DNA of 64,000 nt from Chloroflexota bacterium. Lineage in GTDB: Bacteria; Chloroflexota; Dehalococcoidia; DSGV01. The stretch spans positions 50,163 through 114,162 of the forward strand of contig JAJYLG010000001.1 of the NCBI GenBank assembly GCA_021787985.1, given 5' to 3'. The notes beneath the pieces were generated by a model. It saw only the letters and a program-made list of their open reading frames with translations. It had not been told where the DNA came from and searched no databases. Shown one piece after another: positions 1 to 15,357 of this stretch (positions within the stretch are counted from its first letter, which is position 1; every line of letters begins with the position of its first letter). A program made the position numbers and the translations under genes.

Positions 1-369
1 CGTCACCACGATGCCGCGCCCGGGACGGTTCGTGGGTCGCGCCTCGGTCGGCTCGACCTCGACGCGAACGGTGTCGCCGACGTACACGGGCTTGAGGATG
101 GTGATCTCGGCGCCGAGGAAGGCGATTCCGCGCTCGTTCAGCACGCCCGTCTGCAGCACCAGCCCTTCCGAGAGCGCGAAGGTGAGCGCTCCTGGCACCA
201 GCCGGCCGGTGAACGACGTCTCGCGGCGGAGGTACTCCTGGTCGACGAACAGCGGCTCGTACATTCCCGACAGACCGATGAAGTTGACCAGGTCCGTCTC
301 AGTGACGGTGCGCGCCAGGGTTGAGAAGCGGGCGCCGACCTTGTAGTCCTCGAAGTACCAGGGTTCCAT
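1..369 (-). CDS. MaoC-like (R)-specific enoyl-CoA hydratase/dehydratase (hotdog fold). C-terminal part runs off the window start.
   Basis: Absent from the ORF track because it has no stop inside the window. Reverse-strand translation from the ATG (complement of 367-369) gives MEPWYFEDYKVGARFSTLARTVTETDLVNFIGLSGMYEPLFVDQEYLRRETSFTGRLVPGALTF..., which is typical MaoC N-terminus. A GGAGA RBS lies ~8 nt upstream. Confidence 0.6.
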   Translation of the reverse strand, partial: MEPWYFEDYKVGARFSTLARTVTETDLVNFIGLSGMYEPLFVDQEYLRRETSFTGRLVPGALTFALSEGLVLQTGVLNERGIAFLGAEITILKPVYVGDTVRVEVEPTEARPTNRPGRGIVVT

Positions 370-474
370 CGTCGCTTGTCTCCTTACTTCCGATAGGTCT
401 TGTGCATGCTCCGGATGATCCGCCATACGCGCGTGGCGCGGCCGGAGCGAGCCGGCACGCACGCAGCGCCTCGC

Positions 475-1674
475 TCACGCGCCCGGTTGAAACGTGACGC
501 CCTGGTCCAACAGCGCATCGATCTCGTGCTCGCCATACCCGACCTCCCGAAGCACCTCGCGACTGTCCTGGCCGAGTCGCGGCGCGAGCCGGCCAATGCT
601 CCCGGGGCTGCGCGAAAACGTGATCGGGTTCCGAATCGTGCGCACGCGGCCCTCGCTGGGATGGTCGACCATGGGGAAGAACTCGATGGACTGAAGGTGC
701 GGGTCGCTGAGCAGGCTGTCGGGCGAGTTCAAGGGGACGGCCGGGATGTCTGCCTGCTCGAGGGCTGCCAGCCATTCGGCCGTGGTGCGCTGCTTCAGGA
801 CGTCGGCAACCATGGCGTAGAGCTCGTCGATGTGTTGGGTTCGTGCCGAGACGTCGCGGAAGCGTTCATCGCTGGCGAGCTCGGGGCGACCGGCCAGCCC
901 GAAGAAGCGCTGCCAGTGGCGGTCCGTATAGATCACGGCGCAGACGTAGCCGTCGGCGGTGCGGTAGGGCTTGCGGTGGACGGACGTGGTCCGTGGGTAG
1001 ACGGCGGAGCCCAGCGGGGGGTCAAACGACTTCCCGTACATGTGCTCCAGCATCAGCCCGAACACGATCGTCTCGAACATGGGCACCTCGATGGCCTGTC
1101 CTTGGCCGGTACGTTCGCGGTGGTAGAGCGCCATGAGGATGGCGCTGAGCGTGACCAGCCCGGCGGTCCGATCCGCAACCGCTGAGGCGACGTACTGTGG
1201 CTCGCCGGCGACGTAGGCCTGTACGGCTGCCAGGCCAGACACGCCCTGGATCATGTCGTCGTACGCTGGCTTTCCGCGATACGGCCCCTGTTCCGAGAAA
1301 CCGTACGCCCCGCAGTACACGATTCGCTCGTTGACTGTCCGGACCTCGTCGTAGGTGAGGCCCAGATCTGCCATGGCCTGAGGACGCATATTGTGGACCA
1401 GGAGGTCGCAGGTCTGTGCGAGCCGGAGCACCGCCTCTCGTCCCGCGGGGAGCTTCAGATCGAGGACGATGCTGCGCTTGTTGCGGTTGAGATTCAGGAA
1501 GTTCGCCGCCATGCCGGGGTGGCGCGCCGGGCCGACATAGCGCGTTATGTCCCCCGCGGGGCTCTCGACCTTGATCACCTCCGCACCCATGTCGCCGAGC
1601 AGCAAGGTGCAGTAGGGGCCAAGCAGAACGGACGTCAGGTCCAACACCCGTAGCCCAGACAACGGACCCGTCAT
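475..1674 (-). CDS. Family III CoA-transferase (CaiB/BaiF family), paralog 1
   Basis: ORF 475..2058 trimmed to the internal ATG at 1672-1674. The protein begins MTGPLSGLRVLDLTSVLLGPYCTLLLGDMGAEVIKVE and has a ...RTGQGQ... motif, both typical of family III CoA-transferases. The upstream 128 codons are low-complexity. Confidence 0.8.
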   Translation of the reverse strand: MTGPLSGLRVLDLTSVLLGPYCTLLLGDMGAEVIKVESPAGDITRYVGPARHPGMAANFLNLNRNKRSIVLDLKLPAGREAVLRLAQTCDLLVHNMRPQAMADLGLTYDEVRTVNERIVYCGAYGFSEQGPYRGKPAYDDMIQGVSGLAAVQAYVAGEPQYVASAVADRTAGLVTLSAILMALYHRERTGQGQAIEVPMFETIVFGLMLEHMYGKSFDPPLGSAVYPRTTSVHRKPYRTADGYVCAVIYTDRHWQRFFGLAGRPELASDERFRDVSARTQHIDELYAMVADVLKQRTTAEWLAALEQADIPAVPLNSPDSLLSDPHLQSIEFFPMVDHPSEGRVRTIRNPITFSRSPGSIGRLAPRLGQDSREVLREVGYGEHEIDALLDQGVTFQPGA

Positions 1675-1892
1675 TTCAGAGCGCCTCCCGCAGCGATCAG
1701 TCGACCTTTGCTTGCGCACGCCCGCCCGGACGCGAACGGGGTCCGGCAGCCGCTCGGCCGACGCACGGGCAGGCCGATGACCGGCGGCTCCGTGTGCCCT
1801 GTCCGGCGCCCATCCACGAGCCTGGGCGAGTTCAACCGGTCGAGCCTCCTCATGGTGGCCTTGGCGATGGCATGTCCGTCCATGCTGGTCCC

Positions 1893-3056
1893 CTAGTTGC
1901 GGGGCAGACCCAGGCCCCGCGTCGCGATCACGTTGCGCTGGATCTCGGACGTGCCGCCGCCGATGGTCGCCGCGACCGCGCCCAGGTACATCCGCTCGAG
2001 CCGGCCCATGAGCGGCGCGTGCGGCGTACCGGGCGCGAGCTGGCCGTGCATCCCGCACACCTTCATGCCGGCACCGGCCACACGTTGCTGTAGCTCGCTG
2101 CTGAAGACCTTGAGCAGCGACGCCTCCTTCGACGGCATCAGTCCTCTGTCCTGCATGGATGCGACCGCGTAGGCCATCACCGTCCCGGTCTCGGTGGCCG
2201 TGCGCAGGTCGATCAGCATGTGGCGGACGGAGACCGGCGGGCGTGTCGGAAGCGCGCGGGCCAGCTCGATGATCTCCTCCAGCGTTCGGCGCACCCCCGC
2301 GAAGGAGGCGATGCTCGACCGCTCGAAGTCGAGCGTGGTGGCCGTCTGGTACCAGCCACGGTGAAGCTCGCCAACGAGATTCTCGCGTGGCACGCGCAGG
2401 TTATCGAAAAACACCTGGTTAAAGAAGTGGCCGTCGGCCATGTTCGTCAACGGCTGAACGGTGACGCCCGCGCTGTGCATGTCGACGATGAAGTTGCTGA
2501 TGCCGCGGTGCTTGGGTGCGTCGGGGTCCGTCCGCGCGGCCAGCCAGCAGAAGTCGGCGCGGTGGGCGTCGGAGGTCCAGATCTTCTGCCCGTTGATAAC
2601 GAAGTCGTCGCCGTCCTGGACGGCGCGCGTCTGGAGGGACGCCAGGTCGCTGCCGGCGCCTGGCTCCGAGAACCCCTGACAGAAGAACGCCCCGCCGGCG
2701 GTGATCTGCCTGAGAAAGACCCGCCGCTGCTCCTCGGTCCCGTAGCGAATCAAGATCGGGCCGACGTAGAAGACGCCGCGGCGATGGGCGGCGGCCGGAG
2801 CGCGGTGGTAGGCGATCTCCTCGTTGAAGATCGCCTGCTCGATGTGCGCAAGGCCCAGGCCGCCGTACTCCTTCGGCCACGGCAGCGCGATCCAGCCGCG
2901 CTCCGCCAGGCGCTTCGAGAACCACGGCGACCAGCCGCCGATGCCGAGCCCCTCTTCGCCGAGATCGTCTTCGGGAACGTGGGGCAGCGTTTCCCGGAGG
3001 AACGCTCGCACCTCATCGCGGAATGCCGCCTGCTGCGGTGTCAATCGGAAATCCAT
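1893..3056 (-). CDS. Acyl-CoA dehydrogenase
   Basis: The protein begins MDFRLTPQQAAFRDEVRAFL and ends ...GGTSEIQRNVIATRGLGLPRN, which is ACAD family. A strong RBS AAGAAGGTGGTGGC sits immediately before the ATG at 3054-3056. It is a paralog of the ACAD at 11686..12831. Confidence 0.85.
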   Translation of the reverse strand: MDFRLTPQQAAFRDEVRAFLRETLPHVPEDDLGEEGLGIGGWSPWFSKRLAERGWIALPWPKEYGGLGLAHIEQAIFNEEIAYHRAPAAAHRRGVFYVGPILIRYGTEEQRRVFLRQITAGGAFFCQGFSEPGAGSDLASLQTRAVQDGDDFVINGQKIWTSDAHRADFCWLAARTDPDAPKHRGISNFIVDMHSAGVTVQPLTNMADGHFFNQVFFDNLRVPRENLVGELHRGWYQTATTLDFERSSIASFAGVRRTLEEIIELARALPTRPPVSVRHMLIDLRTATETGTVMAYAVASMQDRGLMPSKEASLLKVFSSELQQRVAGAGMKVCGMHGQLAPGTPHAPLMGRLERMYLGAVAATIGGGTSEIQRNVIATRGLGLPRN

Positions 3057-3110
3057 GCCACCACCTTCTTGCGCACCTGTCACCCACTCCGTGCCTATTT
3101 CGGCTTCAGG

Positions 3111-4328
3111 TCATGTCCGCTCGCCGTTCACACTGCCGAACGCGCCCGCCGCGCGCAGGCGCGCGATCTCTTCGGGGGAGAACGCGGCCTCGCGCAGCAC
3201 CGCGTCCGTGTCGGCGCCAGCCGCGTGTGCCGTGTGGCGGACGGCGCCCGGGGTCTCGGAGAGCTTCACGGCGATGCCAACCTGGCGAACCGGGCCAACT
3301 TCGGGGTCGAGCAGATCGACGAACATGCCTCGCGCCCGGAGCTGTGGGTCGCTGGCCGCTTCGTCGAGCGTGTAGACGGGGCTCGCGGCCACGTCGTGGT
3401 CACGCAGCGCGTCGAACCACTCGTCGCGCGGCCGGGCACGAAACGCCTCGGCAAAGAACCGCCGGATCTCCTCGGCACGCTCTCCAGCCGCCCACTGGTC
3501 GTCGAGATACCGCTCACCACCGAGGGCACGGCACAGGTTCTCGTAGAACCACGGCTCGTTGCAGCCGACGGCGATGTAGCGGTCGTCGGCGCAGCGATAG
3601 GCGCCGTAGTAGGGAGCGGCGCCCGTCAGCCGGTGCGTGCCCCGCATGGGGATGCTGCCGCGCGCGAAGTACTCCGAGAAGAAGTACGTGAGGAGCATGG
3701 CGACGCCGTCGGTCATGGCGATGTCGACGTACTGGCCGGCTCCCGTCCGCTCACGGGCGACGACCGCCGCGAGGATACCGAAGGCCGCGAGCAGTCCACC
3801 GCCCGCGAAGTCGCCGAGCAGATTGCCGGGGGTGGCCGGTGGGCCGTCGCGCTCTCCGATGAGGCTCAGCGCGCCGGCCAGCGCGATGTAGTTGATGTCG
3901 TGGCCGACGACTCCCGCGTAGGGGCCGTCCTGGCCGTAGCCGGAGATGGAGCAGTACACCAGCCTGGGGTTGAGGTCCCGCAGGCGCTCGTAGTCCACGC
4001 CCAGCCGCCTGACCACGCCGGGGCGGAAGCCCTCGACGACGACATCGGCCGTTCGCGCCAGGCGTCGGAAGACCTCCACCCCGTCCGGCGACTTCAGGTC
4101 GAGCGTGATGCTCCGCTTGTTGCGGTCAAACGCGCTGTGGGCGCGGCGCCGCGCCTCCTCCTCGGGAGGGGGCCGTCGCGCCTGACGTTCGAGGCGGGCA
4201 CGTCGTCCGCCACCCAGCTCCTCGATCTTGATGACGTCGGCGCCGAGGTCGGCCAGCAGCATGGTGCAGAACGGCCCGGGCGCCAGCCGGGAGAGGTCGA
4301 GGATCCGGATGTGGTCCAAAGGCAACAC
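3111..4328 (-). CDS. Family III CoA-transferase, paralog 2
   Basis: Contains ...LPLDHIRILDLSRLAPGPFCTMLLADLGADVIKIE... and ...RERTGAGQYVD.... I place the start at the GTG at 4326-4328, 8 nt after an AAGGAGAG RBS. The ORF-track start at 4400 adds an Arg-rich tail. Confidence 0.75.
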   Translation of the reverse strand: MLPLDHIRILDLSRLAPGPFCTMLLADLGADVIKIEELGGGRRARLERQARRPPPEEEARRRAHSAFDRNKRSITLDLKSPDGVEVFRRLARTADVVVEGFRPGVVRRLGVDYERLRDLNPRLVYCSISGYGQDGPYAGVVGHDINYIALAGALSLIGERDGPPATPGNLLGDFAGGGLLAAFGILAAVVARERTGAGQYVDIAMTDGVAMLLTYFFSEYFARGSIPMRGTHRLTGAAPYYGAYRCADDRYIAVGCNEPWFYENLCRALGGERYLDDQWAAGERAEEIRRFFAEAFRARPRDEWFDALRDHDVAASPVYTLDEAASDPQLRARGMFVDLLDPEVGPVRQVGIAVKLSETPGAVRHTAHAAGADTDAVLREAAFSPEEIARLRAAGAFGSVNGERT

Positions 4329-4516: not shown

Positions 4517-5737
4517 TCAGTACTGGGGCACCGCGGCAGGCTGAGTCACCGGCACGAACTTGTTATCCTGCGCAGCCACGACCACTTCCTTGAGCGAGCC
4601 GATGTGCCGCGAAGACGTGTAGGTGACGCTGTAGACGAGGCTTCCGGTCCAGTCGCTGAGGGTGTTCAGCGCGGCCTCGAGGTCCTTCCAGGTGGGCTTC
4701 TGGCCGTTGGCCGTCGCCTTCTTGAACGCCTCGCCGAAGATCTCGCCGGCAGCGAAGCCTTGCTGGCTCAGGAGACCGGGCTGGGCATTCGGGAAGTACT
4801 TCGCCAGCGCCGCGCGGTAATCCGACGCCGCGGGCGTGCTCGCATCCGGACCGACCATGTAGCTGTCGAAGAAGGTCGTGCCGTTCGCGAGGCCGTTGCT
4901 CAGCTTGAACAGGCTCGGGTCGGCGTTGTAGAACCCTGCCGCCCACAGTGGATGGTATCCGCTCCCTGCGGCGTCCTTCTCCGCCGTCGAGAGCTGGGGA
5001 ATGCTCGCCCCCCACCAGACGATGCCGTCCACGCCCGCGTCTTTCATCCTGCTCACGTACGAGCTCATGTCGACCGCGGTCGGGTCCACCGCCAGCTCGG
5101 GGCCCACGGACAGGTTCTCGTGCTGCGCGTACGCTTCGAAGCCCGCCTTCGCCACGGTCCCGACGTCGTTGTTCTCGTACAGCAGTCCGAGCTTCGCCAC
5201 GCTCTTCTGCTTGGTGAGGAATTGCGCCAGGAACTCGGTGGCGTACCGGTAGACGGGGTTAGCCGGGAAGTAGTTGGCGATGCCGGGCTCCTTGACGAAC
5301 GGGTCGCTGGAGAAGCCCGGCGCGATGTCCGGGATGCCGGTCTGCTTGATGAACGGCATTACGGCGTTGTTCGGGATCGTTCCGACATCGCCCACCACGG
5401 CGAAGACATGGTCCTGGTTGACCAGCTTTTTCATCACGGTCAATGACCGCGAGGGATCGTAGGCGTTGTCGGCCGTGTCGTAATTGAACGTATAGCCGTT
5501 GATGCCACCGTGGTCATTGACCCACTTGACCCAGGCCTGCACGCCATACGTGAACGGCAGCAGGAAGTTGAACGGGCCAGTTACAACCTCACCGCCGCCG
5601 ATCGTGACCGTCTTTCCCGACACGCCGGGAGCGCTGGAGCTTGACTTGGAGCTGCTGCACGCGGCAAGCAGGGCCACTGCAGCGACCAATGCGAGCAGGA
5701 GCGTCGATTTGCTCTTGACCCGAGCCCACGAGTTCAT
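4517..5737 (-). CDS. ABC transporter substrate-binding lipoprotein (branched-chain amino acid / Liv-type binding protein family)
   Basis: Starts at the ATG at 5735-5737 after a GGGAGGAAACC RBS. It has a signal peptide with a lipobox (...LLLALVAAVALLAACSS...) and a periplasmic binding protein type I fold signature. The longer ORF-track N-terminus is low-complexity. Confidence 0.8.
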   Translation of the reverse strand: MNSWARVKSKSTLLLALVAAVALLAACSSSKSSSSAPGVSGKTVTIGGGEVVTGPFNFLLPFTYGVQAWVKWVNDHGGINGYTFNYDTADNAYDPSRSLTVMKKLVNQDHVFAVVGDVGTIPNNAVMPFIKQTGIPDIAPGFSSDPFVKEPGIANYFPANPVYRYATEFLAQFLTKQKSVAKLGLLYENNDVGTVAKAGFEAYAQHENLSVGPELAVDPTAVDMSSYVSRMKDAGVDGIVWWGASIPQLSTAEKDAAGSGYHPLWAAGFYNADPSLFKLSNGLANGTTFFDSYMVGPDASTPAASDYRAALAKYFPNAQPGLLSQQGFAAGEIFGEAFKKATANGQKPTWKDLEAALNTLSDWTGSLVYSVTYTSSRHIGSLKEVVVAAQDNKFVPVTQPAAVPQY

Positions 5738-6003: not shown

Positions 6004-6714
6004 TCACAGGAGCTGATAGGCTCCTTTCACGGCGGGATCCGCGCGCAGGACAGATGTCGCGCCCTCCATCACGACCTGCCCGGACTGCAAGATATAGCCG
6101 TAGTCGGCGAGGGCCAGCGCGAGGGTGACGTTCTGCTCGACCAGGAGCAGGGCTACTCCCGTGCGGTTGATCTCTCGCAGGATCTCGAATATCTGCTGCA
6201 CGATGGCGGGCGCCAGACCGAGCGATGGCTCGTCGAGGAGCAGAACGCGTGCGTGCGCTACCAACGCCCGCCCTACCGCCAGCATCTGCTGCTCGCCTCC
6301 CGAGAGCGTGCCCGCGGGCTGGCGGAGCCGTGACCGGAGCGCGGGGAAGTACGTGAGGACCTGATCGAGATCGGCCCGCCTCGTCTTCTGGTGGTCACGG
6401 ACGGCCATGCTTCCGCAGAGCAAGTTCTCCTCTACCGTGAGGTCGGGGAAGACCTGTCGGCCCTCTGGGACCTGCACCACGCCGCCGCGGGCGATGCGAT
6501 GGACCGGCCAGCGATCGATCCGAGTCCCATCGAGCCGCACGGTGCCGGACATGATGCGCAGCTCACCGGAGATCGCCCGGACGAGCGAGGTCTTCCCTGC
6601 GCCGTTGGGACCCAGGACCGTGACGATCCCGGACTCGGGGATACGCACGCACACCTCATGGAGCACGGTCTTGGGGCCGTACCCGGCGACGAGCGATTCC
6701 ACCTCAAGGAGCAC
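6004..6714 (-). CDS. ABC transporter ATP-binding protein (LivF-like)
   Basis: Walker A GPNGAGKTS, a signature LSGGEQQML and Walker B LLLDEPS are all present. The start overlaps the upstream ATPase stop by 11 nt. Confidence 0.85.
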   Translation of the reverse strand: MLLEVESLVAGYGPKTVLHEVCVRIPESGIVTVLGPNGAGKTSLVRAISGELRIMSGTVRLDGTRIDRWPVHRIARGGVVQVPEGRQVFPDLTVEENLLCGSMAVRDHQKTRRADLDQVLTYFPALRSRLRQPAGTLSGGEQQMLAVGRALVAHARVLLLDEPSLGLAPAIVQQIFEILREINRTGVALLLVEQNVTLALALADYGYILQSGQVVMEGATSVLRADPAVKGAYQLL

Positions 6715-7486: not shown

Positions 7487-7495
7487 CCGGCCTTC

Positions 7496-9424
7496 CTAGC
7501 TGCTCTTCGCCGGGTCGCCGAGCGGCTCCGCAGTGGTGAGCTGTTGCCGCCTCCCGGTCCGGATGAAAAGGTTGGCCAACTGATCGGGAACACCGACAAT
7601 CCCGCGTGGTGCAAAGCGGATGACAACGAGCAATGCTCCGCCGTAGATCACGTACTGCCAGTTCCCGACCCCCGCGACGAGCTGCGGGATCATCACCAGG
7701 AAGAGCGCCCCGACGATCGCGCCGGGCAGCGACTCCATCCCTCCTACCACCACGGCCGCGAGGTAGAAGATCGAGTTCCAGAACGTAAAGGTCTGAGGCG
7801 AGATGAAGTTGACGGTGTGCGTGTACAGACTGCCCGCCACACCGGCGAGCATGGCGCTGACGACGAACGCCAGCAGCTTGTAGACCGTGATGTTCACGCC
7901 CATCGCCTTTGCGGCCGGCTCGCTCGAGCGGAGAGCGAGCCAAGCACGACCGATGCGCGAGCGGCGCAGATTGGCGACGGCCGCGATGCATACCGCCAGT
8001 ACCACCAGGGCAAGCCAGTACTTGGCCCGGCCGCCGGTGAGCATCAGGCCGAACAGGCTCGGCTCAGGCCCTGCCATCCCGTTGAATCCGCCGGTCAGGC
8101 GGTTGAGGTTCGCGATGGCGGTGGGCAGGCCCCACCCGAACCCCCACGTGGCTACCGCCAGGTATGGCCCGCTCAGCCGCAGGCAGGGAACCCCGAGCGC
8201 CAGCCCGAACAGGCCCGCGACGACCGCCGCGGCCACCAGTCCGCCGAGGAACGGGAAGCCAAGATCCGTCGTGACGATGGCGGAGCAGTACGCGCCGAGC
8301 CCCATGAACCCCGCCTGCGCCAGGGAGACCTGCCCCGTGAAGCCGAACAGCACGGTGAGTCCCAGGATGGCGATCGCGGCGATCCAAACCTGCGTCAGTT
8401 GGTCCGTTCTGATGGAACCGACGAGAAACGGCAGCACCACGCCAATGATGACGAGGAGTGACGTCGCAGATGTCTTCCGCCTCCCGCTCCCGAGGAACCG
8501 CTGCAGCGGCGAGCCGCCCTGCGGTCGCGCGAATAGCCCGTGGGTGGCGGAGATCAGCGACCTTCTTCCGAACAGCCCCTGCGGCCACAGCACCAGCGTC
8601 AGCAAGATAATGAGAACGAGTATCGGGCTCGTCCACTGCGTCGAGACATAGAGGTCGAGGACGTTCGTGACCACGCTCAGCAGCACGGTGCCGGCAACCG
8701 CCCCGAGAAAGCTGGTCAAGCCGCCGAGGACCACTCCCGCGAACGCTATCAGCAGCAACTGGTCCATGATGCCGATGTCGAGGTAGTAGATCGGCGTGAT
8801 GATCGCGGCTGCCAGGGCGCCGAGCGCCCCACTCAACACCCAGGACAGGCTGAACACGCTCTCGACGTTGATCCCCAACAGCCCGGCCACGCGCGCGCTC
8901 TGGCTCGTCGCTCGCATGGCGAGGCCGATGCGCGTGCGCTGCATCAACAGCGTCAAGAGCAGGATGACGACGGCCACGACTCCCAAGGCAAGAAGCGAGC
9001 TGTAGCCCAGCGAGATCGAACCGACCCGCACCCCACCCGTGCCCACCGGCGAGGGCACCGCGAACTCGTACGGTCCCCAGACGAACAGGGCCACACCACT
9101 CAAGATCATCGAGATGGCCAGAGTGGCGATGACCGACGACATGAGCGGTTGACCGCGGAGTGGACGCAAGATCAGTCGGTCCATGACCAGCCCGAGCGCG
9201 CCGCCGAGCAGCACCGCGAGCAGGACCGCGAGCGCATAGGGCAGGTGCACGTGTGTCAGCAGGACGTACAGGAGGAAGCCACAGAGCATCGAGGCATCGC
9301 CCTGGGCGAAGTTCAATACATTGGTAGAACGAAAGACAACGATCACTCCGAGCGCCAGCAGGCCAAGGGCGCCGCCCATAACGACTCCGCTGACTATGCC
9401 CTGAGCCAGGCTCCCGAAATGCAT
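7496..9424 (-). CDS. Fused LivH-LivM type ABC permease (single 642-aa polypeptide)
   Basis: Starts at ATG 9422-9424 (MHFGSLAQGIVSGVV...). The LivH-like half is followed without a stop by a LivM-like half (...LTQVWIAAIAILGLTVLFGFTGQVSLAQAGFMGLGAY...). The ORF-track N-terminal 100 aa are low-complexity. Confidence 0.75.
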   Translation of the reverse strand: MHFGSLAQGIVSGVVMGGALGLLALGVIVVFRSTNVLNFAQGDASMLCGFLLYVLLTHVHLPYALAVLLAVLLGGALGLVMDRLILRPLRGQPLMSSVIATLAISMILSGVALFVWGPYEFAVPSPVGTGGVRVGSISLGYSSLLALGVVAVVILLLTLLMQRTRIGLAMRATSQSARVAGLLGINVESVFSLSWVLSGALGALAAAIITPIYYLDIGIMDQLLLIAFAGVVLGGLTSFLGAVAGTVLLSVVTNVLDLYVSTQWTSPILVLIILLTLVLWPQGLFGRRSLISATHGLFARPQGGSPLQRFLGSGRRKTSATSLLVIIGVVLPFLVGSIRTDQLTQVWIAAIAILGLTVLFGFTGQVSLAQAGFMGLGAYCSAIVTTDLGFPFLGGLVAAAVVAGLFGLALGVPCLRLSGPYLAVATWGFGWGLPTAIANLNRLTGGFNGMAGPEPSLFGLMLTGGRAKYWLALVVLAVCIAAVANLRRSRIGRAWLALRSSEPAAKAMGVNITVYKLLAFVVSAMLAGVAGSLYTHTVNFISPQTFTFWNSIFYLAAVVVGGMESLPGAIVGALFLVMIPQLVAGVGNWQYVIYGGALLVVIRFAPRGIVGVPDQLANLFIRTGRRQQLTTAEPLGDPAKSS

Positions 9425-9470: not shown

Positions 9471-10643
9471 CTAGGCGGGCACGTTCCCCGACAGAAGGTC
9501 TCGGGCGATGACCATGCGATGGACCTCGGAAGGCCCTTCACCGACCAGCCACACCCGCAGCGCGCGAAGCCACCCCTCCAGGGGCATCTCGCGCGTGAGC
9601 CCGACTCCGCCGTGCACCTGGATGGACCGGTCGACAACCCGATAGGAAGCCTCGGTAGCCAGGAGCTTGGCCATGGAAGCGTGGTAGCGGGCCTCCCGGC
9701 CCTCGACGTCGCGCCAGGCCGCATCCCAGGTCAGCCAGCGGCTCGCCCTCAGCTCGACCGCGGAGTCGGCGAGCATCCACTGCACCGCCTGGCGTGTCGC
9801 GAGCGGCGCGCCGAATGTCTCGCGCTGCTTCGCGTATTCGGTCGCCATCGCGAGTGCCTTGCTGGCGACGCCGATGGACTGCGCCGCGATGGAGACACGG
9901 CCGTGCACCAGCCATTTCTGTGCCAGCGCGAATCCCTGTCCCGGCGCGCCCAGCATCTGCTCCGCGGGTACGCGGCAGTCGTCGAAGGTGATCTCCGTGG
10001 TCCAGCGATCACGGATCACGTGGACGGGACGCACCTCCATCCCCGGCGTGCCGGAGTCGATGATGAACGCGCTGATCCCCTCACGTCCCTTGCCGACGTC
10101 GGTCCGCGCGTAGACGATTCCGTGCTGAGCGCGGTCCGCCCCGGTGGAGAAGAGCTTGCGTCCATTCAGGACCCAGTCGTCCCCATCGCGGACCGCCCGT
10201 GTCTGGATGGCCCGCGCCGGGTCAGAGCCGCCCGACGGCTCGGTAATCGCCACGAACCAGCGACGCGCCTCCGCAACGGAGGGGATGACGTATCGCCGGA
10301 CCTGCTCCTGAGCGCCGGCCAGGAGAACGTTCGGCGGGGTGCGGCCGAATGCCCCACCGGCCGCCTCGAAGAGCCCGGTGCGGTGTTGCACCGCCTCCTC
10401 GAGCACGACCGAGTGCTCGAATGTGTTCAGGCCGCCGCCGCCGTACTCCTGCGGCACCTCGAAGCACCACAGCCCGGCAGCCCTCGCCTTGCCCTGAAGC
10501 TCTCGCACCTGCTCCTCGCGCAGCGTCACCTCATCCCAGCGCAGACTTCGTTCAGCAGCGACGACTTCGCGCTGCACGAACGCCCGTACCGTGTCGCGCA
10601 GGAGGGTCAGCTCGTCGGGCAGCTCGAAACCCTGAAACGGCAT
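9471..10643 (-). CDS. Acyl-CoA dehydrogenase
   Basis: Begins MPFQGFELPDELTLLRDTVRAFVQREVV... and contains ...GGVGLTREMPLEGWLRALRVWLVGEGPSEVHRMVIARDLL, which is ACAD family. The ATG is preceded by an AAGGGAG RBS. Confidence 0.85.
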   Translation of the reverse strand: MPFQGFELPDELTLLRDTVRAFVQREVVAAERSLRWDEVTLREEQVRELQGKARAAGLWCFEVPQEYGGGGLNTFEHSVVLEEAVQHRTGLFEAAGGAFGRTPPNVLLAGAQEQVRRYVIPSVAEARRWFVAITEPSGGSDPARAIQTRAVRDGDDWVLNGRKLFSTGADRAQHGIVYARTDVGKGREGISAFIIDSGTPGMEVRPVHVIRDRWTTEITFDDCRVPAEQMLGAPGQGFALAQKWLVHGRVSIAAQSIGVASKALAMATEYAKQRETFGAPLATRQAVQWMLADSAVELRASRWLTWDAAWRDVEGREARYHASMAKLLATEASYRVVDRSIQVHGGVGLTREMPLEGWLRALRVWLVGEGPSEVHRMVIARDLLSGNVPA

Positions 10644-10788: not shown

Positions 10789-11520
10789 TCATCCGTCCGC
10801 TCGCGCGTCTGGCGTCCGCACGCGGCGGCGCCGGGATATCGCACCGTCTGGGGCGCGGGTGACGCCGCCAGGCGGTTCCGCCGTCGCCTGCTCCAGACGC
10901 CGGATGGTCCGCTCCCGGTGGCCTCGCTGCAGCGCGAGCACCTCTTCCACCGCGCCGCGGCGGCACGCGTCCACCATCGCGCGGTGATCGGCTTCGGTCG
11001 CTTCGAGGTGTGCTCCCGTCGCGAAGAGCGCTCGATACGGGGCCGAAGCGCCCCACAAGATCCGGAGCACCTGGTATGCCCAGGCGATACCGGCCGCGTC
11101 CAGCATGACGAAGTGGAACTCATGGTTGACCCGGTTGAACCGGCCCGGATCGTGCGCCTGCAGTGCGTCATCCATCTCGGCGACGAGCTGGTCCAAACGG
11201 TCAATGTGCTCAGCACTAAGCTTGGGGATCGCCGCCCTGAGGACGAGCTCCTCGACAACCGCGCGGACCTGGTAGATCTGGCGGAGGTCGTCGATGGTGA
11301 ACTTCGCCACCCGTACCCCGCGTCGAGGTAGCAGGATAACCAGCCCATCGGACTGGAGCTGGCCAAACGCCTCGCGCACCGAGCTCTGGCTGACATTGAG
11401 GCGCGTCGCCACCTCGACCTGCCGGATGTGCTCGCCGGCGGTCATTCGGCCTTCGAGGATCTCGTTGCGAAGCACCTGGGCGACCCAGGTGCTGACGGAA
11501 CTGGCGCCCATCGCGACCAT
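10789..11520 (-). CDS. GntR-family transcriptional regulator (FadR/FCD subfamily)
   Basis: An N-terminal winged HTH (...IRQVEVATRLNVSQSSVREAFGQLQSDGLVILLPRRGVRV) is followed by an FCD-like helical domain. It has no SD. A -10-like GATAAT sits 6 nt upstream of the ATG, which suggests a leaderless mRNA. Confidence 0.8.
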   Translation of the reverse strand: MVAMGASSVSTWVAQVLRNEILEGRMTAGEHIRQVEVATRLNVSQSSVREAFGQLQSDGLVILLPRRGVRVAKFTIDDLRQIYQVRAVVEELVLRAAIPKLSAEHIDRLDQLVAEMDDALQAHDPGRFNRVNHEFHFVMLDAAGIAWAYQVLRILWGASAPYRALFATGAHLEATEADHRAMVDACRRGAVEEVLALQRGHRERTIRRLEQATAEPPGGVTRAPDGAISRRRRVRTPDARADG

Positions 11521-11526
11521 GGCGGG

Positions 11527-11555
11527 ATTATCGACTATCGGTCATACTGGGTCAA
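11527..11555 (-). promoter_or_regulatory. Sigma-70-like promoter (TTGACC-N17-GATAAT) carrying the conserved 14-mer CGATAGTCGATAAT, directly upstream of the GntR start
   Basis: In gene orientation the -35 TTGACC is at 11550-11555 and the -10 GATAAT at 11527-11532. The predicted TSS falls at the A of the GntR ATG. The same 14-mer and ~50 nt of flanking similarity recur at 15661-15700. Confidence 0.55.
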
Positions 11556-11685
11556 GACGGCCGCCGCTCCCCCCGCCGGGCCCGCGCCGCCCCACTCGTC
11601 CGCGGGCTCGCTGCGCCTGGGATGCCGCTCGCCGGTTGCGTCGGGGCCCGCCAACCGCCCCGTCACCGAAGGGAGTGCTCGTTCG

Positions 11686-12831
11686 ATGGATTTCCGCTTC
11701 ACCCCCGAGCAAGAGCGGTTCCGGGCCGACGTCCGCGACTTCATCGCGCACCACTGGCCCGCGGGTCGGACTCCGGGGGACGCCGAGGCGCTGGACGCGC
11801 GACGGGTGCGCACGTTCCGGCGGGCGCTGGCAGAGCGCGGCTGGCTGACGCTCGCCTGGCCCACTGAGCACGGCGGGCTGGGGCTGGGTCCGCTCTGGCA
11901 GGCCATCTATATCGAGGAGATGGCCTCGGCGGGCGCGCCGTACCGCGATCAGGGTGTCGATCGCATTGGGCCCACCCTCATGCTCCATGGCACCGAGGAC
12001 CAGCGACGCCGTCATCTGCCGCCCATCGCCCGCGCCGAGTCCTGGTGGTGCCAGGGGTTCTCCGAGCCGGGCGCCGGCAGTGACCTGGCCTCCCTGCAGA
12101 CCCGCTCGGTCCTCGACGGCGACGAGTTCATCGTCAGTGGCCAGAAGATCTGGACCAGCTACGCTCATCAGGCCGACTGGATGGTCCTGCTGGTTCGCAC
12201 CGACCCGGACGCGCCCAAGCACCGCGGCATCTCCTTCCTGCTCGTCGACGTGAAGACCCCGGGCATCACGGTGCGCCCGCTTGTCAGCCTGCCCGGCCAT
12301 CACTCGTTCAACGAGGTCTTCTTCGAGGATGTGCGCGTGCCACGGGAGAACCTCGTCGGCGAGCTGAACCGCGGCTGGTACGTCGCCACTACCACGCTGG
12401 ACTTCGAGCGCAGCGGCATCGACCGCGTGGTCGTGGCGCGCCGACTGCTCGAGACGCTCCTGGCCCACGCCCGCGAGCGCGGCGTGCCGCGGACGATGGC
12501 GATGGAGCTGAGCGAGCTCCGCACCGGCTTCGAGGTAGCCCGCATGATCGCGTATCGCGTGGCCTGGTTGCAGCAGCAGGGCCTCGTGCCGAACCGCGAG
12601 GCGTCGCAGAGCAAGCTCCTCGGAACCGAGGTCCACCAGCGTCTCGCCAACCTGGCGCTGCGCATGCTGGGGCCGGTGGGGCTGCTACGTGCCGGCGATC
12701 CCCTCGCGCCGTTGGCGGGCCTGGCGGCCGAGGAGTACCTGGGCTCCGTGGCGGTCACCGTCCAGGCGGGGACCAGCGAGATCCAGCGCAACATCATCGC
12801 GACGCGAGGTCTCGGCCTACCACGTTCCTAA
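11686..12831 (+). CDS. Acyl-CoA dehydrogenase (divergent from the GntR gene)
   Basis: Begins MDFRFTPEQERFRADVRDFIAHHW and ends ...GTSEIQRNIIATRGLGLPRS. A GAAGGGAG RBS lies ~10 nt upstream of the ATG at 11686. It is a paralog of 1893..3056. Confidence 0.85.
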   Translation: MDFRFTPEQERFRADVRDFIAHHWPAGRTPGDAEALDARRVRTFRRALAERGWLTLAWPTEHGGLGLGPLWQAIYIEEMASAGAPYRDQGVDRIGPTLMLHGTEDQRRRHLPPIARAESWWCQGFSEPGAGSDLASLQTRSVLDGDEFIVSGQKIWTSYAHQADWMVLLVRTDPDAPKHRGISFLLVDVKTPGITVRPLVSLPGHHSFNEVFFEDVRVPRENLVGELNRGWYVATTTLDFERSGIDRVVVARRLLETLLAHARERGVPRTMAMELSELRTGFEVARMIAYRVAWLQQQGLVPNREASQSKLLGTEVHQRLANLALRMLGPVGLLRAGDPLAPLAGLAAEEYLGSVAVTVQAGTSEIQRNIIATRGLGLPRS

Positions 12832-12860
12832 GCCTCGCGCTCGTGGGGCTGACGTCAGGT

Positions 12861-14096
12861 CTATTCAAAGATCCCCGCGGCCTCGTAGGCTGCCATCTCG
12901 TCGTCCGAAAGGCCGAGGATCTCGCGGCAGACCCAGTCCCGCGCTTCCCCCAGCAACGGCGCCGCTCGGCGCGGCTGCGCGACCAGGTCGGAGAAACGGA
13001 ACGGGCTGCCGTGGCATCGATACCTGCCCATCTCCGGGTGGTCCAGCACCGCAAACGTGCCGCGGAAGCGGAACTGTGGGTCCGCGAAGAGATCTTCCCC
13101 TTTCGCCACTGCGGCCGCGGGCACGCCCACCGCCTGCAGCCGACGCACGAGGTCGTTCGCCTCGAACCCGGCGGTCCAGGCGGCGAGCGTCGCCTCGAGC
13201 GCGTCCTCGTGCCGTTTCCGCTCCAGGAAGGTCGCGAAGCCCTCGTTCTGGCACAGATCTTCCCGCCCCATCTCGGTGCAGAGCGCCGACCACTGCGCGT
13301 CCGTCCGCACCGCGATGGCGACCCAGCGGTCTTCACCCCGGCAGGGGAAGACCCCGTGGGGAGCGGCGTACGGGTCTCGGTTGCCTCGGCGCACCGCGGC
13401 GGCGCCGCGAGTGGCGGGAAGCTGCTCACCCAGCAGGCCCGGAAGCGCGAACTGGCAGGCGACCTCGTACTGCGAGAGATCAACGTACTGTCCCCGACCC
13501 GTCCGCCGCCGGTACTCCAGCGCGACGAGCACAGCCACGGAGACGTAGTGCAGCGCGATGAAATCCGCGTACGCGGAGTACGGCCCGGTGGGTGGCCGGT
13601 CCGGCCAGCCGGTGACCTCGTACCAGCCGGTGAGGGCGGATGCCTGCTGGCCGTAGCCGCGGTGCGTGGCGTGAGGGCCGGTTTGCCCCTGCAGGCATTC
13701 GCTGACCATGATCAGGTCCGGACGAACCCTCCGCAGATCTTCGTACGCAAGCCCCCAGCGTGCCATCACTCCGGGCACGAACGTCTCGACGACCGCGTCC
13801 GCCCAGGGAAGCAGGCGCTTGAAGAACTCGCGCGCGGCTGGCTTCTGCATGTTGAGCGCCAGGGAACGCTTGTCCGAGTTGTAGACGGCGAAGTAGCCGC
13901 TGCGGTTCAGTCCTCGTACGTCGCCCGCATACGGTGAACCGAGTCGCGTGGTATCCGGGTGCACGCTCGATTCGACGCGCAGCACCGTCGCGCCCCACAT
14001 GGCCAGCAGCTTCGTGGCGGCCGGCCCGGCCACGGTCGTGCCGAAGTCCAGGATGTGGACGCCTTCCAGGGGCAGTGTGGGTCGTTCGCCGGCCAT
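12861..14096 (-). CDS. Family III CoA-transferase, paralog 3
   Basis: Contains ...VHILDFGTTVAGPAATKLLAMWGATVLRVES... and ...RRTGRGQYVDLSQYE..., the CaiB/BaiF fold signature. Confidence 0.8.
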   Translation of the reverse strand: MAGERPTLPLEGVHILDFGTTVAGPAATKLLAMWGATVLRVESSVHPDTTRLGSPYAGDVRGLNRSGYFAVYNSDKRSLALNMQKPAAREFFKRLLPWADAVVETFVPGVMARWGLAYEDLRRVRPDLIMVSECLQGQTGPHATHRGYGQQASALTGWYEVTGWPDRPPTGPYSAYADFIALHYVSVAVLVALEYRRRTGRGQYVDLSQYEVACQFALPGLLGEQLPATRGAAAVRRGNRDPYAAPHGVFPCRGEDRWVAIAVRTDAQWSALCTEMGREDLCQNEGFATFLERKRHEDALEATLAAWTAGFEANDLVRRLQAVGVPAAAVAKGEDLFADPQFRFRGTFAVLDHPEMGRYRCHGSPFRFSDLVAQPRRAAPLLGEARDWVCREILGLSDDEMAAYEAAGIFE

Positions 14097-14097
14097 C

Positions 14098-15357
14098 TCA
14101 GACCACCCCCAGGGCGAACAGCAGCTCGAGCTCTTGCGAGCTCAAGCCGAGCTCATCCACGAGCACGGCACGGTTGTGCTGCCCGAGTCGGGGTGCCGGA
14201 CCTCGGACGACCCAGGGTGCGCCCGTGGTATGAACCGGCACCCCGGGATACCGCAGCACGATCGCTCGTGCCGTGTCCGCGACCTCTCGCCAGGAAGCGC
14301 GCGCCGCAAGCTGGGGGTCGGCGAGCACGTCCGCCAGCGTGTTGACCGGGCTGAACATGTGTCCGTCGCGGACGGCTGCTTCCAGGAGCTCCGCCTTCGT
14401 CTTGGTGCGCAGGAAAGCGGTGAAGGGCTCGAGGAACCGGTCGACCTCATCGGGGGGTAGGCCCGCGGGATCGAAGGTGGCCCAGTCGGTCTGCTTGAGC
14501 CATTCCGGTGCCGCGCCTTCGGAATCCATCCACTCCATGAGCTTGCGGGCGGTCCGTGCGCCGCCGTAGAAGGTCATGAACATCCAGACCACCCAGCCAT
14601 CCTTGCATTGATAGAGGGTGCGCGAGCGGCGTCCGGGGCCGAGGTCGCGCCACATTCCTTGTCGCTGGAGATTGACGCCGCTGAGATCGGCGAACGCGTA
14701 GGTGTGCGTCAGCATGGACAGCGGCACCTCCTGCGCCGCCACGTCGACGTGTTCGCCGTGGCCGGTTGCGAGGCGGCGAAAGTGGGCCGCGAGGGCGCCG
14801 ACCACGCCGGCCATCGCCAGGTGCAGGCTTGCCTGCGGCGGGAGCCCCACCCGCAGCGGCGCCCGGTCGGGATCCCCGACCATGTGCATGTACCCGCCGA
14901 GCGCCCAGGTGAGCAGGTCGTCCCCCGCGTACGAGCGATACGGCCCTTCCTGCCCGTACGGCGTGAGCGACACCAGGACGACGCGTTCGTTCTGCGCCCT
15001 CAAGTCTTCGTAGGCGAGTCCGCGCGCCGCCAGATAGCCGGGCGGAAACCCTTCGACGACGAAATCCGCCCCCGAGACGAGCTTCCGGAACAGCGCCTGG
15101 CCGTCGCGAGTGTCGAGGTTTAGCGTGACGCTCTGCTTGCCGGCGCCGTATCCCAACCAGAACAGCCCGCGCTCGAGGCCCGGCTCGCCGTCGGCGAACG
15201 GGCCGAGGCGGCGAGCCGGGCTGCCCCCCGGCGGCTCAACCGCGATGACCCGCGCCCCCAGGTCGGCGAAAGTGCGGCCGAAGAGCGCCGTCTCCGTCGT
15301 CGCCAGCTCCAGCACGACATAGGGCGCGAGCAGGTCCTCGTGTGTCTCGTTGGCCAT
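14098..15357 (-). CDS. Family III CoA-transferase, paralog 4
   Basis: Starts at the ATG at 15355-15357 (MANETHEDLLAPYVVLELATTETALFGRTFADLGARVIAVEPP...) with a GGAGGA RBS 13 nt upstream. The in-frame upstream extension to 15660/15708 is low-complexity. Confidence 0.75.
   Translation of the reverse strand: MANETHEDLLAPYVVLELATTETALFGRTFADLGARVIAVEPPGGSPARRLGPFADGEPGLERGLFWLGYGAGKQSVTLNLDTRDGQALFRKLVSGADFVVEGFPPGYLAARGLAYEDLRAQNERVVLVSLTPYGQEGPYRSYAGDDLLTWALGGYMHMVGDPDRAPLRVGLPPQASLHLAMAGVVGALAAHFRRLATGHGEHVDVAAQEVPLSMLTHTYAFADLSGVNLQRQGMWRDLGPGRRSRTLYQCKDGWVVWMFMTFYGGARTARKLMEWMDSEGAAPEWLKQTDWATFDPAGLPPDEVDRFLEPFTAFLRTKTKAELLEAAVRDGHMFSPVNTLADVLADPQLAARASWREVADTARAIVLRYPGVPVHTTGAPWVVRGPAPRLGQHNRAVLVDELGLSSQELELLFALGVV

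Follow-up and report, generated by a model that had tools for sequence, protein, structure and literature searches.

A catabolic acyl-CoA gene cluster with its own importer in a Chloroflexota contig, with a possible role in the degradation of a C2-substituted organic acid

We analysed a window of 64,000 nt, positions 50,163-114,162 of contig JAJYLG010000001.1 (the source contig is labelled L001 below), in which the first 15,357 nt raise the question of whether a run of acyl-CoA enzymes, transporter genes and one regulator gene serves a single pathway, and for which acid. A sequence-only reading had described this region as an island of acyl-CoA catabolism served by a dedicated importer, with a dicarboxylate or a branched acid among the suggested substrates, and this broad description holds: the region is a genuine catabolic acyl-CoA cluster with an importer of its own, of a fairly ordinary kind. 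The genes stand where they had been placed, all of their families were confirmed at these places by Pfam, and the fourth acyl-CoA dehydrogenase (ACAD) was found at 51756..52952. Third-position GC singled out one coding frame per gene across 1-15357, and 12 of the 13 genes encode acyl-CoA enzymes or importer parts according to Pfam. None of the enzymes reached an NCBIfam equivalog cut-off, and we therefore leave the substrate without assignment.

Organization of the cluster and its importer

Two units are encoded on the minus strand. Unit A consists of gntR, as the first gene, followed by ACAD2, livHM, livG, livF, SBP, CoAT2, ACAD1, CoAT1 and, as the last gene, MaoC, while unit B consists of CoAT4 and then CoAT3. 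Units A and B are separated by the plus-strand gene for ACAD3 (11686..12831), which diverges from gntR, converges with CoAT3 and has no recognisable promoter. Because of internal gaps of 145-266 nt, independent promoters inside unit A are possible. The island runs on in L001 beyond the left edge of the window, which cuts the gene for the MaoC-like (R)-specific enoyl-CoA hydratase (1..369, minus strand; PF01575, 50.8 bits). The N-terminal 123 codons lie inside the window, and the full gene encodes 151 aa (L001 11306-11761). The best matches of this protein are weak, to single hot-dog hydratases and to RipB/Ich (52 bits versus a cut-off of 340).

The importer is a LIV-I/HAAT-type system with a Peripla_BP_6 protein, two BPD_transp_2 domains and two ATPases, all encoded on the minus strand. 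The lipoprotein solute-binding protein SBP1 (4517..5737; PF13458, 168 bits) carries a signal peptide with the lipobox LLAAC, and it had no NCBIfam match. In Rhodopseudomonas palustris, the ligands of most binding proteins of the SBP1 family are aromatic, fatty or dicarboxylic acids and not branched-chain amino acids (PMC3223731). The LivF-like ATPase gene (6004..6714; PF00005) overlaps the LivG-like ATPase gene (6704..7486; PF00005) by 11 nt. The fused LivH-LivM permease (7496..9424, 642 aa) contains two BPD_transp_2 stretches in one ORF, with a LivH/UrtB-like half at residues 7-288 and a LivM/UrtC-like half at residues 319-612. The gene caller offered an alternative start at 9379, giving 627 aa; we favour the longer form because homologues align from query residue 3-10. 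The fusion, which had been considered uncommon, is real but occurs often in public sequences: among the 150 top-scoring representatives of clusters at 50% identity, about 135 showed it, and many of these additionally carry an ATPase.

Family III proteins and acyl-CoA dehydrogenases

The CoA_transf_3 domain (PF02515) is full-length in all four family III proteins, with scores of 252-378 bits over nearly the whole profile. These proteins had been taken for four CoA-transferases, with 1/2 and 3/4 as clear duplicates. In an all-against-all comparison, all six pairs shared 25-32% identity and no pair stood closer, indicating that they are not recent duplicates. The count of four transferases needs revision as well, since CoAT2 has the catalytic residues of a racemase and CoAT4 appears to be without the Asp needed for catalysis. 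As judged from their sequences, the four proteins represent three different enzymes: a CoAT4+CoAT3 heteromer, a racemase-type CoAT2 and the transferase CoAT1. The catalytic Asp of family III CoA-transferases forms an acyl-aspartyl anhydride (Frc Asp169), and we take this residue to be equivalent to Asp156 of the Mycobacterium tuberculosis racemase MCR. In a single MAFFT alignment, the column of MCR Asp156 contained Asp in CoAT1, CoAT2, CoAT3 and BbsF, and Gln or Ala, with no Asp, in CoAT4, the BbsE chain 9fn0_A and the partner protein from contig L007.

The genes for CoAT4 (14098..15357, minus strand) and CoAT3 (12861..14096, minus strand) are separated by 1 nt, and their products match the two chains of benzylsuccinate CoA-transferase in a subunit-specific manner. 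The best PDB match of CoAT4 was 9fn0_A (201 bits; next best 137; 9fn0_B 82), and that of CoAT3 was 9fn0_B (262 bits; next best 186; 9fn0_A 105); homologues of CoAT3 carry the JGI name BbsF subunit. We thus assign CoAT4 and CoAT3 as the putative BbsE-like and BbsF-like subunits, respectively, of a two-subunit benzylsuccinate-type CoA-transferase, encoded in the order E-like then F-like. As for the rest of the bbs/bss toluene set, no SDR, thiolase/DUF35 or glycyl-radical genes were found in the window or in L001.

CoAT2 (3111..4328, minus strand; GTG start, 405 aa) is a predicted epimerase of the alpha-methylacyl-CoA racemase type. Its best PDB match was MCR of M. tuberculosis (1x74, 232 bits), with a formyl-CoA-transferase entry close behind (211 bits). 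The roles of the His126/Asp156 pair and Glu241 in catalysis (M. tuberculosis numbering) are known from MCR structures. In the alignment with the racemase, MCR His126, Asp127, Asp156 and Glu241 are conserved in CoAT2, the motifs GHDINY, LLGDF and NEP aligning with MCR residues 125-130, 153-157 and 240-242. The racemase His was present only in CoAT2, its relative from contig L008 and MCR in the MAFFT alignment, and was absent from CoAT1, CoAT3, CoAT4, BbsE and BbsF. Compared with MCR (about 360 aa), CoAT2 is 45 residues longer; it contains an insertion of 18 residues, and its C-terminus resembles that of the transferases. CoAT1 (475..1674, minus strand; PF02515, 378 bits) appears to be a generic Frc/SUGCT/YfdW-type family III CoA-transferase that retains the catalytic Asp; its best PDB matches were formyl-CoA transferase (198 bits), SUGCT (195) and YfdW (190), and it scored below every NCBIfam equivalog cut-off.

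ACAD1 (1893..3056, minus strand), whose gene lies 54 nt downstream of CoAT2, and ACAD3 contain the shared motifs noticed earlier and are 51% identical. By best matches and the position of the catalytic Glu, ACAD1 is assigned to the ChsE4/FadE26/PimC (alpha-subunit-like) type and ACAD3 to the ChsE4/PimC type. The best PDB matches of ACAD1 were 4x28_A (ChsE4) and Tcur3483 (240 bits; next best 138), and the best NCBIfam model for ACAD1 and ACAD3 was TIGR03204 pimC_large (234 and 250 bits, respectively; cut-off 624). In both proteins the catalytic Glu lies in LDFERS, at the IVD/ChsE4 position, and the MCAD Glu position is occupied by Gly/Ala (Gly in ACAD1). Source names of ACAD3 homologues were generic or, for some, ChsE4 alpha subunit (JGI), and none was benzylsuccinyl-CoA dehydrogenase (BbsG). 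No second ACAD gene for a beta subunit adjoins ACAD1 or ACAD3, and the related modules in L007, L008, L091 and L092 also contain a single ACAD; since a ChsE5-like beta subunit is lacking, ACAD1 and ACAD3 are probably homomeric. ACAD2 (9471..10643, minus strand) is a short-chain/butyryl-CoA-dehydrogenase-like protein, with rat SCAD as its best PDB match (234 bits) and Glu at the MCAD position. Neither a 3-hydroxyacyl-CoA dehydrogenase nor a thiolase was seen within the window.

Candidate operator and conservation of the modules

The regulator encoded at 10789..11520 (minus strand) is a GntR-family protein with a winged helix (PF00392, 50 bits) and a C-terminal FCD ligand domain (PF07729, 73 bits), and it remained below all equivalogs (best phnR_burk, 113 bits versus a cut-off of 271). 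Only two promoter-like matches were detected in 16 kb, both sigma-70-like and one upstream of each unit: TTGACC-17-GATAAT at 11527..11555 (minus strand), upstream of gntR, and TTGATC-17-GATAAT at 15661..15689 (minus strand), about 300 nt upstream of CoAT4. The two sites agree at 24 of 29 positions. The gntR gene has no RBS and the -10 box stops 6 nt ahead of its ATG; it is probably translated from a leaderless transcript. The 14-mer CGATAGTCGATAAT overlaps the -10 box of the first site (11527-11540, minus strand), and an identical copy overlaps that of the second (15661-15674); the expectation for a second exact copy in the window by chance is about 3e-5. No clear palindrome was found in the 14-mer. 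Since the identical sequence lies at both -10 boxes, control of units A and B by the encoded GntR/FCD protein is suggested, with the 14-mer as its candidate operator. A one-mismatch copy, CGATAATCGATAAT, is located at 32738..32751 (minus strand) and precedes a UGSC selenoprotein gene by about 20 nt (about 2e-3 such copies expected by chance); the regulon may include this gene as a third member. UGSC selenoprotein genes occur twice in the window, in both cases together with the gene for an unannotated protein of about 350 aa that has no solved structural relative.

A set of CoAT4-like, CoAT3-like and ACAD3-like genes recurs in other Chloroflexota and in Deltaproteobacteria contigs. The transferase pair adjoins an ACAD3-like gene in L006, L007, L008/L009, L091 and L092, and the BbsEF-like pairing is kept in six of seven sampled contexts. 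ACAD identities were compared for L006, L007 and L008: downstream of the pair in L007 and in L008, the ACAD is 58-61% identical to ACAD3, and the ACAD beside the pair in L006 is 39% identical to ACAD1. A CoAT2-like gene stands beside BbsEF-like pairs in L008, L061, L063 and L072. The nearest homologues of CoAT3 and ACAD3 were found in Dehalococcoidia/Chloroflexota MAGs. In L093, a contig from the same sample, GntR/FCD, MaoC, ACAD and a BbsEF-like pair form one same-strand run, which adjoins a DUF35+thiolase (BbsAB-like) pair and an ECH gene. The gene order of the whole island was not found in 80 metagenome loci with CoAT2 homologues, most of which share no other island gene.

Proposed pathway and comparison with known systems

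Taken together, we propose, at a probability of about 0.5, that the locus is a regulated catabolic cluster for the import, CoA transfer, epimerisation, desaturation and hydration of a C2-substituted organic acid, with alkyl- or aryl-substituted succinates, or other 2-branched mono- or dicarboxylates, as candidate substrates. Binding of the acid or its CoA ester would relieve the repression of the two promoters by the GntR/FCD protein. Once captured by the SBP lipoprotein, the acid would enter through the fused permease LivHM with its ATPases LivG and LivF and be activated without ATP by CoA transfer, with succinyl-CoA as the probable donor. This transfer would be carried out by a BbsEF-like heteromer of CoAT4 and CoAT3, whose nucleophilic Asp would come from CoAT3 alone, and/or by a homomeric CoAT1. 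The racemase-like CoAT2 would invert the C2 centre, making both epimers usable, and the ChsE4/PimC-type ACAD1 and ACAD3 would introduce the 2,3 double bond. Hydration by MaoC would yield the (3R)-hydroxyacyl-CoA, and the SCAD-like ACAD2 may act on the shortened product, with a 3-hydroxyacyl-CoA dehydrogenase and a thiolase or lyase presumably encoded elsewhere.

Given the dozens of CaiB/BaiF and ACAD paralogues in Chloroflexota genomes, it is conceivable that two or three small, independent modules merely stand side by side, the parts being the BbsEF-like pair and ACAD3, the importer genes, and the racemase and ACAD1. This is the strongest rival, though distinctly less probable. Expansion of CaiB/BaiF paralogues is documented in SAR202 Chloroflexi, where the many family III paralogues were suggested to channel a range of acids into CoA-dependent oxidation at no ATP cost (PMC5395668), and the long gaps in unit A, the missing whole-island order and the many contexts in which the CoAT4/CoAT3/ACAD3-like module stands alone agree with such a neighbourhood. 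The sequence-only reading had named grouping of the transferases with enzymes of unrelated pathways, together with a lack of co-regulation, as evidence against a common role. Each of CoAT1-4 indeed falls with a different characterised enzyme (Frc/SUGCT, alpha-methylacyl-CoA racemase, BbsF and BbsE, respectively); however, the roles of these enzymes fit one pathway, the 14-mer and near-identical promoters precede both units, L093 joins regulator, hydratase, dehydrogenase and transferase pair on one strand, and nearly every gene of the region is an acyl-CoA enzyme or importer part.

Past the left edge of the window, MaoC is directly followed by convergent genes for a third Peripla_BP_6 protein and three 4-hydroxybenzoyl-CoA-reductase-like proteins. 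Among NCBIfam models, the alpha protein scored 841 bits against 4-hydroxybenzoyl-CoA reductase (cut-off 995; next family 541) and the beta protein 271 bits (cut-off 405), while for the gamma protein the glyceraldehyde dehydrogenase gamma model was slightly ahead (193 versus 183 bits). With the benzylsuccinate-type transferase pair, these genes raise the idea of aromatic acid degradation, in which a hydroxyphenyl-substituted acid (4-hydroxybenzylsuccinate- or hydroxyphenylpropionate-like) would be converted to a 4-hydroxybenzoyl-CoA-type product and then dehydroxylated. The beta protein has four Cys (124/140/148/157) in the region of the extra 4Fe-4S loop carried by HBCR beta (PMC11760930). We regard this route as unlikely: the reductase-like genes stay under the equivalog cut-offs and the 14-mer was not found at them, neither the window nor L001 shows genes for a benzoyl-CoA pathway, an SDR or a thiolase, and the ACADs are ChsE4/PimC-like, with no ACAD3 homologue named BbsG. 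A wider and still more doubtful idea is that the BbsEF-like transferase and ChsE4-like dehydrogenase form the core of an undescribed pathway widespread among Chloroflexota, organised here as one GntR regulon with two Liv-type importers and two selenoprotein gene pairs; the pairs would provide a selenium-dependent redox step for this class of substituted acids, with a possible link to the reductase-like enzyme. Least probable of all is degradation of a steroid, bile-acid or isoprenoid side chain by an MCR-type racemase, ChsE4-type dehydrogenase and MaoC as for cholesterol in M. tuberculosis, to which the closest solved relatives of CoAT2 and ACAD1 (MCR; ChsE4 and Tcur3483), the ChsE4 alpha names of some ACAD3 homologues and the presence of MaoC would point, because the scores fall far under the equivalog cut-offs, dicarboxylate-type CoA-transferases would do the activation, the MaoC is a single 151-aa hot-dog protein rather than a ChsH1/ChsH2 pair, and the window contains no beta-subunit ACAD by ACAD1/ACAD3, acyl-CoA ligase, ring-opening genes or Ltp2-type aldolase.

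The proposed pathway for a C2-substituted acid resembles several known systems in part. The bbs operon encodes beta-oxidation of benzylsuccinate by the CoA-transferase BbsEF, the dehydrogenase BbsG, the hydratase BbsH, BbsCD and BbsAB. Like bbs of Thauera aromatica, the cluster has a putative two-subunit family III transferase with the E-like gene ahead of the F-like one, each product matching its own Bbs subunit best (201 and 262 bits) and, in the MAFFT alignment, only the F-like one having Asp in the catalytic column, as well as an ACAD and a hydratase nearby, and the related contig L093 adds the BbsAB-like DUF35+thiolase pair and ECH. It differs in its ChsE4/PimC-like ACAD, in a MaoC-type rather than crotonase-type hydratase, in the absence of BbsCD, BbsAB and benzylsuccinate synthase from the window, in the presence of an ABC importer and a GntR regulator, and in its Chloroflexota host. 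As in the M. tuberculosis cholesterol side-chain set (MCR Rv1143, ChsE4-ChsE5 and ChsH1-ChsH2), a racemase-type protein stands beside a ChsE4-like ACAD, and MCR His126/Asp156/Glu241, the catalytic Glu at the IVD/ChsE4 position and a MaoC-type hydratase are kept; the similarity to MCR and ChsE4 is only 232-240 bits, and unlike that set the cluster has a single small MaoC and lacks a ChsE5-like beta subunit, ligases and ring-degradation genes. With pimFABCDE of R. palustris it shares PimC large-subunit as the best model for ACAD1/ACAD3 and, as at RPA3723-3725, a Liv-type importer adjoining beta-oxidation genes, but at 234-250 bits versus a cut-off of 624, with no PimD, PimF, PimB or PimA ligase, and with activation predicted to proceed by CoA transfer. 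Finally, the family III paralogues and the nearest CoAT3/ACAD3 homologues, from Dehalococcoidia/Chloroflexota MAGs, recall the CaiB/BaiF and ACAD expansions of SAR202 and other Chloroflexota; unlike in those expansions, the paralogues here can be assigned to heteromer subunits, a putative racemase and a transferase, and they share a candidate operator.

Gene organization of the island and its importer

By an exact protein match, the window belongs to a metagenome contig of 126,864 bp (ENA ERZ27233565 k141_1339019); the exact sequence of ACAD1 gave no match. Reading frames in the window, which has a G+C content of 69%, were picked by third-position G+C, giving one plausible gene per stretch. 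Pfam bore out the families that the sequence-only reading had placed in the island (1–15357), as well as a fourth acyl-CoA dehydrogenase (ACAD) gene outside it, at 51756–52952; as a whole, that reading was largely right in its observations and partly right in its interpretation. Unit A, on the − strand, is headed by gntR (GntR and FCD domains; 10789–11520), followed in transcription order by ACAD2 (9471–10643), the fused LivH–LivM permease (7496–9424), LivG (6704–7486), LivF (6004–6714), the lipoprotein Peripla_BP_6 binding protein SBP1 (4517–5737), CoAT2 (3111–4328), ACAD1 (1893–3056), CoAT1 (475–1674) and MaoC (1–369; truncated by the window edge, 151 aa on the contig). ACAD3 (11686–12831, + strand) is divergent from gntR, and the two genes of unit B, CoAT4 (14098–15357, − strand) and CoAT3 (12861–14096, − strand), are separated by a gap of 1 nt and converge on ACAD3. 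Scanned against Rfam, the island showed neither a riboswitch nor a leader RNA; the only matches, all elsewhere in the window, were a tmRNA (45790–46143, + strand; tag peptide GEPQLALAA), tRNA-Lys(CTT) (33066–33141, − strand) and tRNA-Val(GAC) (39900–39976, + strand). The window also contains genes for a CDC48-like double-AAA ATPase (19433–21751), MutL (48677–50659) and MutS (54833–57355), all on the − strand.

The LivH–LivM fusion is real, with LivH/UrtB-like and LivM/UrtC-like halves and two BPD_transp_2 domains in one ORF. It had been described as an uncommon architecture, but when 1.84 billion cluster representatives were searched, approximately 135 of the best 150 matches were fused alike, many of them additionally bearing an ATPase. 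Synteny of the fused permease across 185,579 species genomes was limited to four distant Variovorax/Burkholderiales loci (35–37%), which have in common the importer and a distant CoAT1-like gene (35–36%). In the Variovorax loci L002–L004, a family III CoA-transferase gene, the product of which is 35–36% identical to CoAT1, lies within approximately 9 kb of the fused LivHM gene. Liv-type binding proteins encoded beside acyl-CoA genes such as those of the island are usually those for aromatic, fatty or dicarboxylic acids, not amino acids (PMC3223731).

Identity of the family III proteins and the dehydrogenases

None of the island enzymes reached the cut-off of an NCBIfam equivalog model, and substrate assignment by curated models was therefore impossible. 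CoAT1/CoAT2 and CoAT3/CoAT4 had been taken for duplicates; however, all six pairs are just 25–32% identical, and neither is a recent duplicate pair. Comparison against all solved structures clearly separated the four proteins. The best matches of CoAT3 and CoAT4 were the two chains of benzylsuccinate CoA-transferase (PDB 9fn0), namely, chain B (the BbsF subunit) for CoAT3, at 262 bits with the next match at 186, and chain A (the BbsE subunit) for CoAT4, at 201 bits with the next at 137. CoAT2 matched the Mycobacterium tuberculosis alpha-methylacyl-CoA racemase, MCR (232 bits), and CoAT1 matched formyl-CoA transferase, SUGCT and YfdW at 190–198 bits, none being clearly preferred.

Residue-level alignment showed that His126, Asp127, Asp156 and Glu241 of MCR are kept in CoAT2 (GHDINY ... 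LLGDF ... NEP), and an equivalent of His126 was found only in CoAT2, in the CoAT2 relative of the homologous locus L008 and in MCR itself. We take the Asp156 column to be that of the catalytic Asp in family III transferases. In a single MAFFT alignment, this column is occupied by Asp in CoAT1, CoAT2, CoAT3 and BbsF, and by Gln or Ala in CoAT4, BbsE and the CoAT4-like protein of locus L007. We read CoAT4 as the E-like (non-nucleophilic) and CoAT3 as the F-like (catalytic) subunit of one predicted heteromeric transferase, CoAT2 as a predicted epimerase, and CoAT1 as a separate transferase, predicted to be homomeric. A possible analogy with ThnP/ThnO, from naphthalene degradation, was rejected because ThnP is a family I enzyme.

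The motifs quoted in the sequence-only reading were found in ACAD1 and ACAD3, which share 51% identity. The nearest solved relatives of ACAD1 are ChsE4 (4x28_A) and Tcur3483 (240 bits; next 138), and the PimC large-subunit model gave the top score for both ACAD1 (234 bits) and ACAD3 (250 bits), the cut-off being 624. In both, the catalytic Glu (LDFERS) occupies the IVD/ChsE4 position and not that of MCAD, and neither gene is adjoined by a gene for a beta-type partner. ACAD2 is similar to short-chain acyl-CoA dehydrogenase (234 bits), with Glu at the MCAD position. ACAD4, encoded outside the island on the − strand, has Asn at the IVD position and Ile at the MCAD position; because Glu is missing at both canonical catalytic-base positions, it may not be a conventional dehydrogenase. 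The ACAD4 gene adjoins that of a metallo-beta-lactamase-fold protein.

A candidate operator and the UGSC genes

In a consensus scan of positions 1–16000, where 0.9 sigma-70-like sites would be expected, just two were detected, both intergenic and on the − strand: TTGACC-17-GATAAT at 11555–11527, directly upstream of gntR, and TTGATC-17-GATAAT at 15689–15661, upstream of CoAT4. The two sites match at 24 of 29 positions and share a 14-mer without mismatch, CGATAGTCGATAAT, that overlaps the −10 box in each; from base composition, chance alone would give approximately 3e-5 further exact copies in the window. The simplest reading of this repeat is a putative repressor site placed over the −10 box of units A and B, one of which is headed by the GntR/FCD gene, although no convincing palindromic operator emerged when five intergenic regions were searched for inverted repeats. 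The gntR mRNA is probably leaderless, since the gene has no ribosome-binding site and its ATG lies 6 nt past the end of the −10 box.

Outside the island, a copy of the 14-mer with one mismatch lies at 32738–32751 (− strand), approximately 20 nt upstream of the first of two UGSC-family selenoprotein genes. Its position before this gene suggests that an operon of UGSC genes and a second Liv-type importer belongs to the same putative regulon as gntR and CoAT4. The second importer (25367–30965, − strand) has LivH and LivM as separate proteins, along with a binding protein and two ATPases, is 32–47% identical to the first, and is flanked on both sides by UGSC gene pairs. The first UGSC gene (32176–32718, − strand; Pfam 115 bits) has an in-frame TGA at 32440–32442 (LAN-U-GSC), and the second (24681–25256, − strand) has one at 24969–24971 inside the U-G-S-C motif; both had been cut in two by ORF finders. 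Hairpins 3' of both in-frame TGA codons folded no better than shuffled sequence. The first gene is followed by that of a 346-aa protein with no Pfam or NCBIfam match, and the second by that of its 364-aa paralogue. This selenoprotein pair is a more unusual lead than the island.

A conserved module and a proposed pathway

MAGs of Dehalococcoidia/Chloroflexota, and some of Deltaproteobacteria, contain the closest homologues of CoAT3 (up to 56% identity) and ACAD3 (up to 63%). Many of the CoAT3 homologues are labelled 'BbsF subunit' by JGI, and some of those of ACAD3 'ChsE4 alpha subunit'. Six further contexts of CoAT3 homologues were sampled, and in five of them (L006, L007, L008/L009, L091 and L092; the exception was L090) a CoAT4-like gene lies directly upstream and an ACAD gene beside the pair. 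Identity to ACAD3 is 58–61% for the ACADs in L007 and L008, and the ACAD gene of L091 converges on the transferase pair, the same arrangement as in the window. L008 further carries an ECH gene and a CoAT2-like gene (45% identity), and the order CoAT4-like, CoAT3-like, CoAT2-like occurs in L061, L063 and L072. The whole island was rejected as a conserved unit, since its other genes are missing from almost all of the 80 metagenome loci with CoAT2 homologues (46–58% identity); what is conserved is thus a module of three genes, CoAT4-like, CoAT3-like and ACAD.

The best parallel to the window cluster is L093 (k141_1621944; 68% G+C), from the same metagenome sample. It has a same-strand run of genes for a GntR/FCD regulator, MaoC (151 aa), an ACAD and a luciferase-like oxygenase, together with a pair of BbsE-like and BbsF-like proteins, 43% identical to CoAT4 and 45% to CoAT3, respectively. 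Next to the run are a divergent thiolase and DUF35 pair (BbsAB-like) and an ECH gene, and L093 further carries a UGSC gene with a 342-aa partner. The absence of whole-island synteny favours the alternative that the island may be no more than a set of unconnected modules lying next to one another in a genome rich in paralogues, a kind of expansion described for SAR202 Chloroflexi (PMC5395668), but the L093 gene set and the candidate operator common to both units argue against it.

In the proposed pathway, SBP1 together with LivHM, LivG and LivF would import an acid, which would be activated by CoA transfer without ATP via CoAT4/CoAT3 and/or CoAT1. CoAT2 would invert the C2 centre, ACAD1 and ACAD3 would carry out 2,3-desaturation, and MaoC would perform (R)-hydration, a shortened product being the proposed substrate of ACAD2. 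Neither a 3-hydroxyacyl-CoA dehydrogenase nor a thiolase is encoded within the window, so the later steps would have to be encoded elsewhere. The location of the racemase-type CoAT2 gene 54 nt upstream of ChsE4-type ACAD1 suggests that the acid carries a C2 substituent, as does the benzylsuccinate type of the predicted activating enzyme, the product of which is a 2-substituted succinyl-CoA.

Alternatively, the island may serve an aromatic-acid pathway together with a 4-hydroxybenzoyl-CoA reductase-like enzyme encoded next to it. The source-contig locus (L001) reaches approximately 9.5 kb beyond the left end of the window, and just left of position 1 three genes (11826–17044 of L001) have 4-hydroxybenzoyl-CoA reductase subunits as best NCBIfam models: alpha at 841 bits (cut-off 995; xanthine dehydrogenase model 541), beta at 271 bits (cut-off 405) and gamma at 183 bits (cut-off 258; glyceraldehyde dehydrogenase gamma model slightly higher, 193). 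The beta-like protein has a four-Cys insertion (Cys124/140/148/157) at the place of the extra 4Fe-4S loop of 4-hydroxybenzoyl-CoA reductase. A third Peripla_BP_6 binding protein gene precedes the three, and the whole set is convergent with MaoC. The likenesses to ChsE4 and MCR suggest a steroid-type side-chain pathway, but the beta subunits, ligases and ring-degradation genes of such a pathway are absent.

If the proposed pathway is true, separate roles can be given to proteins that pipelines uniformly annotate as 'CaiB/BaiF CoA transferase', and a conserved module of E-like subunit, F-like subunit and ChsE4-like dehydrogenase is defined. Uncultured Chloroflexota and Deltaproteobacteria commonly carry this module, and identification of its substrate would help to explain the ATP-free activation of substituted or recalcitrant organic acids in these abundant bacteria. 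The candidate operator offers a simple handle on regulator binding and effector. The cluster itself is a variation on an ordinary type of catabolic locus; its main value lies in sharper annotation and a testable regulon.
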